Origin: an uncultured Actinomycetes bacterium
Lineage (GTDB): Bacteria > Actinomycetota > Actinomycetes > S36-B12 > UBA5976
Reading direction: 5' to 3'
Assembly: GCA_903892635.1 (NCBI GenBank)
Contig: CAITJH010000044.1
Span: 66,108 to 130,107, forward strand
Length of the DNA stretch: 64,000 nt
Under the pieces are notes generated by a model. It was not told the origin of the DNA. It was given only the letters and a program-made list of their open reading frames with translations, and ran no database searches. Positions 4,487-49,974 of the stretch are shown here, one piece after another (within the stretch, counting starts at the first letter, position 1; every line of letters starts with the position of its first letter). The position numbers and the translations under genes are program-made.

Positions 4487-5932
4487 TTAGTAGCGGTAAT
4501 GATCTGGCTTGAATGGACCTTCGTGTGAGACACCAAGGTAATCAGCCTGCACCTTTGTTAGTTCTGTGAGCTTTACACCGAGGGCATCAAGGTGCAGACG
4601 AGCAACCTTTTCGTCCAAGTACTTCGGAAGAATGTGCACGCCGATTTCATACTCGTCGCGCTTGGCGAATAGCTCGATTTGGGCAAGCACTTGGTTGGTG
4701 AACGAGTTACTCATCACGAATGATGGGTGACCTGTGGCGTTACCAAGGTTGAGCAAACGGCCTTCGGAAAGAACGATGATGCTGTGGCCATCTGGGAAGA
4801 GCCACTCGTCAACCTGTGGCTTGATGTTGCGGCGCTGAACTCCTGGGAAATTCTGCAAGCCTGCAATATCAATTTCATTATCAAAGTGACCGATGTTGCC
4901 AACAATTGCTTGGTGCTTCATCTTTGCCATATCTTCGACCGTGATGACGTCGCGGTTGCCAGTTGCTGTGATGAAGATATCTGCCTTTTCAACGACATCT
5001 TCGAGTGTCAATACTTCGTAGCCATCCATCGCTGCCTGCAGCGCGCAGATTGGATCGATTTCAGTAATAACAACGCGTGCACCTTGGCCACGAAGTGATT
5101 CAGCTGAACCCTTGCCGACATCACCGTAGCCAAACACAACAGCAAGCTTGCCTCCAATCAATGTGTCGGTCGCACGATTGATTCCGTCGATCAGGCTGTG
5201 GCGAGTGCCGTACTTGTTATCAAACTTGCTCTTGGTAACTGAATCATTAACGTTGATGGCTGGGAACTTGAGTTCGCCTGCTTTAAACATTTCGTACAAA
5301 CGATGAACACCAGTCGTAGTTTCTTCGGTAACACCGAGAATGCCATCGCCAATTGTGGTCCAGCGCTTTGGATCTTCTTTAAGTGACTTCTGAAGAAGCG
5401 ACAAGACAACACCAAATTCTTCTGAGTCAGCACCAGCTGGATCTGGAACAAAGCCAGCAGCTTCGTATTCAGCGCCCTTGTGAACCAACATGGTTGCGTC
5501 GCCACCATCGTCGAGGATCATGTTCGGTCCTACTTCACCTGGCCACATCAGAGCCTGCTCGGTGCACCACCAGTACTCTTCGAGGGTTTCACCCTTCCAT
5601 GCGTAAACAGGAACACCGGTAGGAGCATCAACAGTTCCATTTGAACCGACAACAACTGCGGCGGCGGCATGATCTTGCGTCGAGAAAATATTGCACGATA
5701 CCCATCGAACATCGGCGCCGAGTTCAACGAGTGTTTCAATCAGAACAGCGGTCTGGATTGTCATGTGAAGTGAACCCATGATGCGAGCACCCTTGAGTGG
5801 CTTGCTCTGACCGTACTCAGCACGCATAGCCATCAAACCTGGCATTTCGTGTTCAGCTAGGCGGATTTCATTACGGCCAAATTCGGCAAGTGAAAGGTCT
5901 GCGACTTTGTAGTCGTTTGGCGAAAGCGTCAT
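4487..5932 (-). CDS. ahcY: Adenosylhomocysteinase
   Basis: Start chosen at [13 protein letters not shown] with a GAGGAG Shine-Dalgarno (SD) sequence 8 nt upstream. NAD motif GYGDVGKG and C-terminal KPDHYRY are present. The ORF-track extension to 6034 is probably not translated. Confidence 0.92.
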
Positions 5933-43273: not shown

Positions 43274-43577
43274 GGCATCTCTTTTCTTAATGGGTCGGAA
43301 CAACGTTTGCCATTCCGGGTCTTGCTCCCTGCCCACCAAGGTGAGAGTTCGCTACGTGCTCGCGAATCTTTTGTCTTCGAGTCTTACTCTCTAACGACTT
43401 GCAATTACTTATCGACCAGTTATCAGCCTATGGCACAAAACCCCCGCAATTGACCTAATCTCGCCTAAATCGTCACATTCGGCTGCAAGAGTAGAGAAAT
43501 CTGCAATGGGCGGGCCGCACGGGGCGGATATTGCTTCTTGCTAAACCAAATGGTCGCGCATAAAGCAGCCGTCCGGT

Positions 43578-43859
43578 TTAGCCACCAGCGACTGCAGGGA
43601 CGATTGAGATCTGGGCACCATCTGGTGTCGGCGTTGCTAGACCTTCTAAGAATCGAACATCATCGTCATTGATGTAGAAGTTGATGAAGCGACGCATTTC
43701 GCCAGTATCGCTCACAAGACGCTGCTTGATACCTGGGTATGACGCCTCAAGCGTGTCAATGACGCCGCCGAGTGTGGCCTCACCTGGTTCAACATCGACG
43801 TTAGCTTCACCACCGGTGTAAGTGCGAAGGATTGTTGGGATACGTACGGAGACACTCAT
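43578..43859 (-). CDS. MoaD/ThiS-family sulfur-carrier protein (C-terminal GG)
   Basis: 93 aa with a beta-grasp pattern, ending ..PAVAGG. Overlaps the stop of the upstream ThrC-like gene by 4 nt. Confidence 0.8.
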   Translation of the reverse strand: MSVSVRIPTILRTYTGGEANVDVEPGEATLGGVIDTLEASYPGIKQRLVSDTGEMRRFINFYINDDDVRFLEGLATPTPDGAQISIVPAVAGG

Positions 43860-45115
43860 TTGCCACTCGCAATCACTAGAGAAACGGAATCAACACTTGG
43901 TGCAATTGTTGCAGTAAAACCATCGCCTGTTGACACAGCATCGAGAGTTTTTAGTCCTTCACCGGTGTTGACGATGACGGTTTCGGCAGTTGGGTCGAGA
44001 AGTCCCTGAGCCAACAACTTGCGAGTAACTGCCACGGTCACGCCGCCAGCTGTCTCGGCAAAAATGCCCTCGGTTTCAGCCAGCAAGCGAATACCTTCAA
44101 TGACTTCCGCATCGGTCACGTCACCGATCGCACCGTTAGTGCGACGAACGGCATCAAGTGCATACGGGCCATCTGCAGGGTTTCCGATCGCAAGAGACTT
44201 GGCGATTGTGTTCGGTTTCACTGGACGAATGACATCTTGGCCATCCGCAAACGCAGTCGACACTGGATTGCAGCCAGTGGCTTGCGCACCAAATACTCGA
44301 TAGTTGTGTTCTTCGACAAGTCCCAGAGCGAGAAACTCGCGCCAGCCTCTATCAATCTTGGTGAGCAACGAACCCGAAGCAACCGGAATAACAACCTGAT
44401 CTGGCAAACGCCAGCCAAGTTGTTCGGCAATTTCGTAACCGACTGTCTTGGAACCTTCTGCGTAATACGGACGAAGGTTGACGTTAACAAAACCCCAATC
44501 GGCAGAAACTTCTTCGCCAATTAATTCGGAGCACAAACGATTCACATCGTCGTAGTTGCCATCGATGCCGATGACGAAACCGTTGTAAGCAGCAGTCGCC
44601 TGAATTTTGTGCGACTCAAGGTTTGACGGGACAAGTACAACTGAACGCTGACCGGCACGCGCAGCAGCGGCTGCCACTGCTTGCGCCAAGTTTCCAGTCG
44701 ATGCGCATGCAAGTGTTTTGAAGCCAAGTTGAATACCTGCCGTTTGAGCAACGGCAACGACGCGGTCCTTGAAGGAGTGCGTCGGATTGCCACTGTCATC
44801 TTTGACCCACAACTTGCCCGTGATGCCGAGCGCCTTGGCAAGATTGTCAGCTGGCTGCAACCGAGTCATACCCGGTGAAAGCGTGCGGGTTTCCGCAACG
44901 TTTGCTGGAACCGGCAAGAGCGGTGCGTATCGCCACAATGAAAGTGGGCCGGCTTGGATTTGTTCGCGAGTTACCGTGCCAAATTCATACGCAACTTCTA
45001 GTGGGCCAAAGCATTCCCAGCATGAGTAGTCGGCGCCTAGAGTCGCGTGTGCTCCACAAGCACGACAAACAAGATGAGTTGCGGCACCAAATGATGCGGC
45101 GGGGGTTTCAGACAT
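43856..45115 (-). CDS. Threonine-synthase-family PLP enzyme with N-terminal Zn ribbon (candidate sulfur-carrier-dependent homocysteine synthase)
   Basis: CRACG..CWEC zinc ribbon and PLP-lysine motif PTHSFKDR. 419 aa. It is coupled to the MoaD-like gene and sits behind a SAM-I riboswitch. Confidence 0.75.
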   Translation of the reverse strand: MSETPAASFGAATHLVCRACGAHATLGADYSCWECFGPLEVAYEFGTVTREQIQAGPLSLWRYAPLLPVPANVAETRTLSPGMTRLQPADNLAKALGITGKLWVKDDSGNPTHSFKDRVVAVAQTAGIQLGFKTLACASTGNLAQAVAAAAARAGQRSVVLVPSNLESHKIQATAAYNGFVIGIDGNYDDVNRLCSELIGEEVSADWGFVNVNLRPYYAEGSKTVGYEIAEQLGWRLPDQVVIPVASGSLLTKIDRGWREFLALGLVEEHNYRVFGAQATGCNPVSTAFADGQDVIRPVKPNTIAKSLAIGNPADGPYALDAVRRTNGAIGDVTDAEVIEGIRLLAETEGIFAETAGGVTVAVTRKLLAQGLLDPTAETVIVNTGEGLKTLDAVSTGDGFTATIAPSVDSVSLVIASGK

Positions 45116-45262
45116 AGCGTGAGCCTTTCGTCATCTGCCTTAGCGATTCAACATTGAATCTCTAAGCCGGAATTGGCACCGTGTTGCGCGGCCACGAATG
45201 GTTTCGCAATGGTTGCCGGGGCTTCAACGGGCCGGTCCCTCTGCCCCTCTGGATGAGGTGTT
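45116..45262 (-). ncRNA. SAM-I (S-box) riboswitch
   Basis: Minus strand reads CTCATCCAGAGGGGCAGAGGGACCGGCCCGTTGAAGCCCCGGCAACC...GGTGCCAATTCCGGCTTAG...CTAAGGCAGATGA, matching the conserved S-box core. The 3' strand of stem P1 abuts the SD GAAAGG of the ThrC-like gene. Confidence 0.88.
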
Positions 45263-45365
45263 ATTTAGTTAGTCACTGAACGAATTCAACAACGTGATGA
45301 AACTGTATCAGCCATTTTCAGATTCGAAAAAACTGGGTGTCTCACGATCCCAGATTGTGGAACTG

Positions 45366-45800
45366 CTACTTAACGACAACCAAAGTGAGTGCGTCATTCG
45401 CCATTCCTGCCAATGCTGGAAGCGTTGAAGCACGGAACTGAGTTGCCAGCTTTAGCGCATGAGACTTTGCACCCTGCGGGTAATAAACCGTCGTTATCTT
45501 TGGAGCAGGACCGCTGAGGTTACCCACTGATTTGATGACCCATCCCTTTTGAGATGCAGCATCGGCAACAGTTCGAGCAAGTCCACTCGTAGAAGTTCCA
45601 TTGAGAACAACCACAGGAAGTTCGCTGGATTGCGTGGGACTTGATGAAGCAACAGAAGTCGGGCTCGAATTAGCGACTTGAGAATTTGTTGGTGAGAGAC
45701 CAAGAAGTTTGAAACCAACCCCGGCTAAAAATGCGACAGTTGTGATTATGACGCCGAGCGGAATTAGCACCCGTTGCAAAAAGGGCTGCTTTCCTGACAC
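45366..45800 (-). CDS. LytR_C domain membrane-anchored protein
   Basis: One TM segment, a Ser-rich linker, then VVVLNGTSTSGLARTVA..., typical of the LytR C-terminal domain. Confidence 0.65.
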   Translation of the reverse strand: MSGKQPFLQRVLIPLGVIITTVAFLAGVGFKLLGLSPTNSQVANSSPTSVASSSPTQSSELPVVVLNGTSTSGLARTVADAASQKGWVIKSVGNLSGPAPKITTVYYPQGAKSHALKLATQFRASTLPALAGMANDALTLVVVK

Positions 45801-48708: not shown

Positions 48709-48885
48709 CGCCCACCGTCTTCATTTAGAGCAATTTTCAAGATAATCCACTAGCTGTTTCACAGACATTTCCTACCAAGTCCGACCAGAATTGATCTATT
48801 GCCACACTGGCAATGCAGGGGCTGAAAAGCCGCTGACCTTTACTACGGATCGTTCGGCACGTACCTGCCGATGAAGGAGAACAAA

Positions 48886-49974
48886 ATGGCGTCTGTGTCA
48901 TTTAAGGCAGCAACCCGAATATATCCGGGCTCAACCATTCCAGCTGTAAACGCACTTGATCTTGAAATTGCAGATGGTGAATTTCTTGTACTCGTCGGAC
49001 CATCAGGTTGTGGCAAGTCAACGACTTTGCGCATGCTTGCAGGTTTAGAAGATATTGACGAAGGCGCAATCTACATCGGTGACCGTGATGTCACTGATGT
49101 AGCACCAAAGGATCGCGACATTGCAATGGTCTTTCAAAATTACGCCCTTTATCCACACATGTCTGTCGCTGAGAACATGGGCTTCGCGCTCAAGATCGCC
49201 GGAGTCGACAAGGCCGAAATTGGCAAGCGTGTCGAGGAGGCTGCAAAGATTCTTGATCTTGAGCAATTTCTTGACCGCAAGCCAAAGGCACTCTCGGGTG
49301 GTCAACGTCAGCGTGTTGCGATGGGTCGCGCAATTGTCCGTAACCCACAGGTGTTCCTCATGGATGAACCCTTGTCAAACCTTGATGCCAAATTGCGAGT
49401 TCAAACTCGAACTCAAATTGCAGCATTGCAGCAACGTCTCGGCGTGACGACGGTTTACGTTACACACGATCAAACCGAAGCTATGACGATGGGTGATCGA
49501 GTTGCAGTACTCAAGGATGGCTTTTTACAGCAGTGTGCAACTCCTCAAGAACTTTACGATCGTCCCGTCAATGTCTTTGTAGCTGGTTTTATCGGATCAC
49601 CAGCAATGAACTTGGTGGAGGTCCGTATTGATGGCGAAGGCGTGATTGTCGAAGGTGAGCACATCAAACTTTCCGACGACATCCTAAAAGATGCACGCGA
49701 GCAAGGTTTGAATTCCTTGATTCTTGGTTTCCGACCAGAGGACACCACAGTTGGAGGTGAAGGTTTTGCCATGCAAGTCAACATTGTTGAAAGCCTTGGT
49801 GCGGATGGTTACGTATATGGCAATGTGGTGGATGCCAGTGGAAACGCTCATCAAATTACAATTCGAACTAATGGTCGCAATATTCCCCGTCGTGGCGAAA
49901 CAATTCGCCTTCGGGTTTCTAGTGAACACACCCACGCATTCAACTCAGCAACAGGCCTACGCCTCGGAAAATAA
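48886..49974 (+). CDS. Sugar ABC transporter ATP-binding protein (MalK/MsiK/UgpC type)
   Basis: Start at MASVSFK with a GAAGGAG SD. Walker [10 protein letters not shown], signature LSGGQRQR, Walker B FLMDEPLSNLD and a C-terminal MalK-like regulatory domain. Confidence 0.88.
   Translation: MASVSFKAATRIYPGSTIPAVNALDLEIADGEFLVLVGPSGCGKSTTLRMLAGLEDIDEGAIYIGDRDVTDVAPKDRDIAMVFQNYALYPHMSVAENMGFALKIAGVDKAEIGKRVEEAAKILDLEQFLDRKPKALSGGQRQRVAMGRAIVRNPQVFLMDEPLSNLDAKLRVQTRTQIAALQQRLGVTTVYVTHDQTEAMTMGDRVAVLKDGFLQQCATPQELYDRPVNVFVAGFIGSPAMNLVEVRIDGEGVIVEGEHIKLSDDILKDAREQGLNSLILGFRPEDTTVGGEGFAMQVNIVESLGADGYVYGNVVDASGNAHQITIRTNGRNIPRRGETIRLRVSSEHTHAFNSATGLRLGK

Follow-up and report, generated by a model that had tools for sequence, protein, structure and literature searches.

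The DNA analyzed here, the window, is a stretch of 64,000 nucleotides from a contig (CAITJH010000044.1) of an uncultured bacterium of the class Actinomycetes, and the locus in question lies on its minus strand between positions 43578 and 45262, where a predicted S-adenosylmethionine (SAM) riboswitch precedes the genes for a threonine-synthase-like enzyme and a small sulfur carrier. We assign a probability of roughly 0.87 to the reading that this locus is a two-gene metM-metO operon under the control of a SAM-I riboswitch and that its products make homocysteine. Judged by sequence, the pair is the ortholog of the published Streptomyces metM-metO operon. The features on which the argument turns, among them a gene for a pyridoxal 5'-phosphate (PLP) enzyme with the fold of threonine synthase (ThrC), are the following.

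45128 to 45259, minus strand: SAM-I (S-box) riboswitch aptamer (RF00162, 74.9 bits against a gathering score of 44.4, E = 9.7e-16).
45259 to 45252 (5' strand) and 45135 to 45128 (3' strand), minus strand: helix P1 of the SAM-I aptamer.
45124 to 45129, minus strand: Shine-Dalgarno-like GAAAGG, read from the sequence, 8 nt upstream of the AUG at 45115.
43856 to 45115, minus strand: metM-like gene with an ATG start, encoding a ThrC-fold PLP enzyme of 419 amino acids (aa), a putative MetO-thiocarboxylate-dependent homocysteine synthase.
45011 to 45067, minus strand: codons of an N-terminal Cys4 ribbon (C17, C20, C32, and C35, spaced C17-x2-C20-x11-C32-x2-C35) ahead of the catalytic domain, read from the translation.
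44768 to 44770, minus strand: codon of the PLP-binding lysine K116 in the motif HSFKDR, placed by alignment with the SFKDR lysine.
43578 to 43859, minus strand: metO-like gene, encoding a 93-aa ThiS/MoaD/CysO-type sulfur carrier that ends in AVAGG, identified as an open reading frame (ORF) with a family match.
43856 to 43859, minus strand: ATGA, the 4-nt overlap of the metM stop and the metO start, from the ORF coordinates and the sequence.

The original prediction for this locus, made from the letters of the DNA without database searches, had described a SAM-I aptamer upstream of a ThrC-family gene with an N-terminal Cys4 ribbon, a 4-nt overlap with the gene for a 93-aa beta-grasp carrier ending in GG, and a P1 3' strand that abuts the Shine-Dalgarno sequence. 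The Rfam covariance model, the protein family searches, the translation, and the coordinates listed above bear out all of these elements.

The enzyme is recognizably a relative of threonine synthase. It matches Pfam PALP (2.4e-65) and the NCBIfam thrC model TIGR00260 (264 bits, cut-off 167), and solved ThrC structures match it down to 6.6e-50. Its K116 lines up with the lysine of the SFKDR motif in each of the five solved threonine synthases, and all 30 of the 30 orthologs retain it. Every public source examined labels the enzyme and its relatives “threonine synthase.” The passing of an equivalog cut-off, the unanimity of the public names, and the retention of the PLP lysine together with much of the ThrC core favor the explanation that the protein is a genuine second threonine synthase (ThrC2), whose riboswitch would keep the O-phosphohomoserine branch point in balance by turning threonine synthesis down at high SAM levels. 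We consider this extremely unlikely. The genome already encodes a canonical ThrC within a hom-thrC-thrB operon, which at 299.6 bits scores above the window's enzyme on the same TIGR00260 model, and phylogeny separates the two. We built a maximum likelihood tree from 30 MetM-like proteins, the five ThrCs of known structure, and the ThrC of this genome, in which the last is sister to the ThrC of Mycobacterium tuberculosis. The window's enzyme and eight Streptomyces proteins form one clade (support 100/99), and a long branch (100/96) splits the 30 MetM-like proteins from the six canonical ThrCs, a grouping to be read with the caveat that the MetM-like rows were picked as best matches to the query. 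This is the phylogenetic placement that had been foreseen for the enzyme. Its identity is 64 to 65% to the Streptomyces orthologs and about 35% to genuine threonine synthases.

Differences at individual residues also distinguish the two clades. All four cysteines of the ribbon are invariant in the 30 MetM-like proteins; short canonical ThrCs are without the Cys4 segment, and their PDB alignments start at query residue 59 to 62. Twenty-six alignment columns are fixed inside each clade and different between MetM-like proteins and ThrCs, the PLP lysine being common to both. The signature changes, given in Thermus thermophilus ThrC numbering and then in that of the window's enzyme, include T88 to L143, S155 to N213, N157 to R215, R160 to Y218, N188 to S247, and A222 to C282; L143, N213, Y218, and S247 occur in 30 of 30 members of the MetM-like clade, and T, S, R, and N occupy these positions in six of six canonical ThrCs. 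We take T88, S155, R160, and N188 to be the residues that surround the substrate phosphate in the T. thermophilus ThrC structures, which were reportedly described by Omi et al. in 2003. The joint replacement of these positions throughout the clade would fit a changed reaction and speaks against ThrC2, as do two features of the operon itself: a co-translated Gly-Gly sulfur carrier would be useless to a threonine synthase, and repression by SAM would have the wrong sign for the threonine branch. SAM is an activator of threonine synthase in plants.

The carrier matches Pfam ThiS (1.5e-14), and its closest solved relative is CysO of M. tuberculosis (3dwg_C, 1.7e-25). It is 65 to 66% identical to the Streptomyces carriers encoded beside MetM, versus 53% to the genome's own CysO, and the CysOs of M. 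tuberculosis, A. orientalis, and this genome are split from the MetO-like carriers with a Shimodaira-Hasegawa-like approximate likelihood ratio (SH-aLRT) support of 96 in a tree of 91 columns, to which we give modest weight. It thus differs from a CysO in lying outside the CysO group and in not adjoining cysM. The ATGA overlap, identical in 13 of 29 related loci, is predicted to couple the translation of metO to that of metM. The window's carrier ends exactly in GG, so C-terminal trimming would not be needed. Some other MetO-like carriers (L027, L032, L039, L041, L042, L046, and L048) have an extra 1 to 6 residues after Gly-Gly (C, A, AV, R, or STDDGV), and these would therefore require proteolytic trimming before activation.

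The kinship of the carrier with CysO is one of three points in favor of the idea that the product of the pair is not homocysteine but cysteine or some other sulfur amino acid, with a substrate such as the O-phosphoserine used by CysM/CysO or cysteate synthase; the others are that SAM riboswitches control cysteine genes too in some bacteria and that cysteate synthase is a ThrC homolog. Such a role is hardly credible here, since a separate cysO-cysM pair with an adjoining mec gene is present in the genome, the enzyme reaches only about 23 to 28 bits against CysM structures, and its orthologs in Streptomyces are encoded at the locus reported as metM. Cysteate synthase was rejected as an identity for the enzyme at 54 bits on TIGR03844, for which the cut-off is 325.

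The arrangement of riboswitch, enzyme, and carrier recurs across the phylum. When 301 Actinomycetota genomes were searched with the window's enzyme, the scores were bimodal: roughly 130 genomes hold a full-length relative of 50 to 65% identity (about 345 to 595 bits), canonical ThrCs match at 32 to 39% identity (about 175 to 210 bits), and most genomes with a full-length relative hold a second, ThrC-type match as well. The best non-self group (64 to 65%, genus g3) is Streptomyces by NCBI names, and exact look-up of four proteins from it returned S. achromogenes, S. fructofermentans, S. cyaneofuscatus, and others, all labeled “threonine synthase.” RF00162 lies directly upstream of the enzyme gene in 23 of 29 phylum-wide loci, including all eight from Streptomyces, and in 19 of the 20 loci tested in a second, named set. 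The nearest named relatives, at 87 to 88% identity, are metagenome-assembled genomes of “Candidatus Nanopelagicales.”

Within the same collections, a MetO-like ORF directly follows the enzyme gene in 28 of 29 phylum-wide loci and in 65 of 80 named loci. This association bears on the explanation that the enzyme uses free sulfide to convert O-phosphohomoserine to homocysteine, with the carrier being dispensable or serving another pathway. Some loci of Pseudonocardiaceae and Lentzea hold the enzyme without an adjoining carrier, which favors that explanation in that the link is not absolute. Against it stand the frequency of the association, the translational coupling of the carrier to the enzyme through the ATGA overlap, the separation of MetO-like carriers from CysO in the tree, and the entry of MetM as MetO-thiocarboxylate dependent in GapMind (PMC13759103); we judge the use of free sulfide to be very unlikely.

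Two further observations concern the distribution of the genes. MetM-like genes of 66 to 67% identity with no MetO-like ORF inside 3 kb were seen in Lentzea, Actinosynnema, Umezawaea, and Pseudonocardiaceae (L111, L115-L118, L124, L126-L129, and L131). In three loci of family f17 (L038, L043, and L048), the MetM-like match has one in-frame TGA or TAG near its 5' end and no RF00162 match accompanies it; these in-frame stops probably reflect read-through upstream of the true start.

The riboswitch upstream of the metM-like gene is complete. In the Rfam scan of the whole window, the match spans model positions 1 to 108 of 108, a full four-helix aptamer, and a genome-wide scan matched RF00162 once only in the whole 1.68-Mb assembly. 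The aptamer is predicted to bind SAM and to repress the downstream gene. The GAAAGG element shares one base with the 3' strand of P1 and directly abuts the helix, leaving 12 nt between the P1 3' end at 45128 and the metM-like AUG at 45115, and this leader is too short for any terminator. A promoter and terminator scan of positions 43300 to 45500 returned no terminator-like site there and no promoter match, the latter with promoter models that exclude actinobacterial promoters. The succession of P1, GAAAGG, and AUG is found also in Nanopelagicales, Streptomyces, Actinomadura, Spirillospora, Kribbella, Kitasatospora, and other loci, in which P1 is 7 to 18 nt from the start codon with a purine-rich Shine-Dalgarno sequence right behind it; longer leaders with visible anti-Shine-Dalgarno/Shine-Dalgarno hairpins occur in more distant families of the phylum. 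Because P1 touches the Shine-Dalgarno sequence, no terminator was found, and the layout recurs in relatives, riboswitch control is probably translational. Rho-dependent polarity could possibly come after translational gating.

Upstream of P1, many Actinomycetes loci (L023-L026, L058-L067, L080, L106, and L120) share an ACAAC-n-GAA-like motif, conserved at a distance of 5 to 15 nt, and at its position the window (about 45262 to 45275) and its Nanopelagicales relatives carry ACTAAATA(A/C). The motif may be a promoter -10 region or a transcription-start region.

The observations are consistent with a model in which homoserine kinase (ThrB) would supply O-phospho-L-homoserine and MoeZ would adenylate the C-terminal Gly-Gly of MetO, leading to the thiocarboxylate. 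MetM, as a PLP enzyme derived from threonine synthase, would then remove the phosphate from O-phosphohomoserine, and the MetO thiocarboxylate would attack C-gamma; if the analogy with CysM/CysO holds, the next step would be an acyl shift, after which the JAMM hydrolase Mec would free homocysteine. Plentiful SAM would bind the aptamer and close P1 on the first Shine-Dalgarno base, probably blocking ribosome loading, while the expression of metO would track that of metM through translational coupling. The partner genes for homoserine kinase, MoeZ, and Mec are all encoded in the genome. GapMind 2026 (PMC13759103) includes the four Streptomyces components MetM, MetO, MoeZ, and Mec and cites Hasebe et al. 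2024 for them, and a second source places a SAM riboswitch upstream of metM and metO adjacent to it in S. albulus (PMC12172450). A MetM/MetO-type route, which the original prediction had proposed, is supported by these accounts and by the grouping of the enzyme with riboswitch-linked Streptomyces proteins. The original prediction had also stated that the E1-like activating enzyme is not in the window; no E1-like gene lies there, and MoeZ is encoded on another contig.

Several points weigh against this interpretation. The chemistry of the route is drawn from Hasebe et al. 2024 second-hand, through secondary sources, and from the CysM/CysO analogy. The case for orthology was made with eight Streptomyces species other than S. 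albulus (MetM A0A059WBP2), all of them with the same riboswitch-enzyme-carrier layout. According to one report, a cyanobacterial MetM homolog acted as a threonine deaminase in vitro (PMC12172450), and members of the family may therefore differ in function. With regard to regulation, the leader was folded under three settings, namely free of constraints, with P1 imposed, and with the 5' strand of P1 kept from pairing. The mean unpaired probability of the Shine-Dalgarno sequence was 0.44 with P1 imposed versus 0.54 to 0.58 when it was not, which is no clear SAM-dependent shift and speaks neither for nor against translational control. Finally, a complete metX-metY route is present in the genome, so methionine prototrophy is explained without MetM/MetO.

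The host assembly comprises 1.68 Mb in 92 contigs, with roughly 50% GC and about 96% completeness. The neighbors of metM-metO are unrelated to it, LytR_C and DUF3263 genes upstream and a cold-shock protein gene and a TetR-like gene downstream, and the operon is therefore bicistronic; there is no NIL-domain gene among these neighbors. Elsewhere in the genome, the features relevant to sulfur and methionine metabolism are as follows (C and a number denote a contig of the assembly, C44 being that of the window).

C52: canonical hom-thrC-thrB operon, with thrB cut by the contig end.
C6, 25860 to 27290: MoeZ, a ThiF-type adenylyltransferase with a rhodanese domain (NF005902, 709 bits, cut-off 647).
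C10, 29025 to 30718: cysO-cysM pair with a divergent JAMM/Mec gene; the CysO is M. tuberculosis-like, 90 aa long, and ends in AVAGG.
C61: MoaD.
C44, 160214 to 162735, minus strand: metX-metY operon, about 50 kb from metM-metO on the same contig.
C44, 162844 to 162961, minus strand: SAM-IV riboswitch (RF00634, 102.8 bits), about 110 nt upstream of metY-metX and outside the window (locus L005, 2905 to 3022).
C74, 4491 to 5450, minus strand: MmuM-type homocysteine S-methyltransferase (NF007020, 351 bits).
Window, about 4487 to 5932, minus strand: adenosylhomocysteinase AhcY (TIGR00936, 641 bits).
C27: MetK motif.

The thrB fragment matches with 131 bits over positions 2 to 173, and the Mec-type JAMM protein beside cysO-cysM matches Prok-JAB with 103 bits. 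MetY (NF005872, 801 bits, cut-off 703) and MetX (NF047917, 507 bits, cut-off 475) both score above threshold, and the suggestion that the genome might be without metY was thus mistaken: the metX-metY operon is there, behind a SAM-IV riboswitch of its own, and MetM/MetO would therefore be a second route in this organism, not a replacement. The two predicted homocysteine routes would each be SAM-gated by its own riboswitch class, MetM/MetO by SAM-I and MetX/MetY by SAM-IV. A dedicated PLP enzyme accompanies each of the genome's two CysO-type carriers, but MoeZ and Mec are encoded only once each and would be used by both carriers.

Regex motifs run over six-frame ORFs found no MetE, MetH-sized ORF, CysH, or CysD, with the motifs being crude and the assembly about 96% complete. 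There are hints of a dependence on reduced sulfur and on methyl donors of the S-methylmethionine type. It is a speculative and, taken as a whole, unlikely proposal that the two carrier pairs (CysM/CysO and MetM/MetO) with one MoeZ and one Mec could be the main sulfur-assimilation system of a streamlined, Nanopelagicales-like genome, fed by sulfane sulfur on the rhodanese domain of MoeZ, with homocysteine methylated by the MmuM-type enzyme from exogenous S-methylmethionine, and that, separately, the platform-less leader, with P1 ending right on the Shine-Dalgarno sequence, could represent a translational type of SAM-I that is distinct, very simple in design, and common to the class Actinomycetes.

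One observation in the window stands apart from sulfur metabolism. An msiK RNA motif (RF01747, 59.8 bits) at 48829 to 48885 on the plus strand precedes a gene for an MsiK/MalK-like ABC ATPase (48871 to 49974, plus strand), the expected actinobacterial arrangement.

The MetM/MetO route is already known, having been published for Streptomyces in 2024 and built into GapMind, and the window adds one more copy of it, from a Nanopelagicales-like bacterium with a small genome, without altering what is understood of the pathway. As long as the protein and hundreds of its relatives are named “threonine synthase,” metabolic reconstructions of abundant freshwater Actinobacteria will miss a homocysteine route. 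If the assignments hold, the presence of two SAM-gated homocysteine routes in a small genome is something that models of how these bacteria depend on sulfur and methionine could use, and the 26-position signature that separates MetM-like proteins from ThrCs could become a simple classifier. Of local interest are the coexistence with a SAM-IV-controlled metX-metY operon, the presence of two carriers on one MoeZ and one Mec, and the MetE, MetH, and sulfate-reduction genes that the crude motifs left unseen.

In the account of Hasebe, Adachi, Maruyama, and Hamano (2024, Appl Environ Microbiol 90:e0124724), as conveyed by PMC13759103, MetM and MetO of S. albulus act with MoeZ and Mec to make homocysteine from O-phospho-L-homoserine and MetO-thiocarboxylate. 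The window's locus resembles the Streptomyces system in the order of SAM riboswitch, ThrC-like enzyme, and Gly-Gly carrier, in a minimal leader that runs from P1 straight into GAAAGG and on to the AUG, and in the location of the MoeZ and Mec genes elsewhere in the genome. It differs from that of S. albulus in its host, a 1.68-Mb Nanopelagicales-like assembly of roughly 50% GC, and in having metX-metY, preceded by a SAM-IV riboswitch, in the same genome; the carrier encoded here stops exactly at GG, whereas some relatives extend for 1 to 6 residues beyond it. The CysM/CysO/Mec/MoeZ system of M. tuberculosis (PDB 3dwg) shares with the window a GG-ending beta-grasp carrier (55% identity to the M. 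tuberculosis CysO). The two further have in common, on the window's side by prediction, a PLP enzyme whose substrate is an O-phosphorylated amino acid, MoeZ as the activating enzyme, and a JAMM hydrolase for the release. Unlike CysM, the partner enzyme here has the ThrC fold, the expected substrate is the C4 compound homoserine rather than the C3 compound serine, and control would be by a SAM riboswitch. Canonical ThrCs (PDB 1uim, 2d1f, 2zsj, 6cgq, and 1e5x) have in common with the window's enzyme the fold, the SFKDR PLP lysine, and probably the substrate, O-phosphohomoserine. They stand apart from it in their low identity, in the N-terminal Cys4 ribbon and the clade-specific substitutions of the window's enzyme, and in the carrier gene that adjoins it and the SAM riboswitch upstream. 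A further parallel is the HcyS/HcyD/HcyF/MetY system of Wolinella succinogenes, for which Krishnamoorthy and Begley reportedly described protein-thiocarboxylate-dependent homocysteine synthesis in 2011. There, too, a carrier thiocarboxylate is said to be the sulfur donor for homocysteine and a JAMM protease to effect release, but the system reportedly employs O-acetylhomoserine and a MetY-fold (fold type I) enzyme, in contrast to the O-phosphohomoserine and the ThrC fold predicted here.

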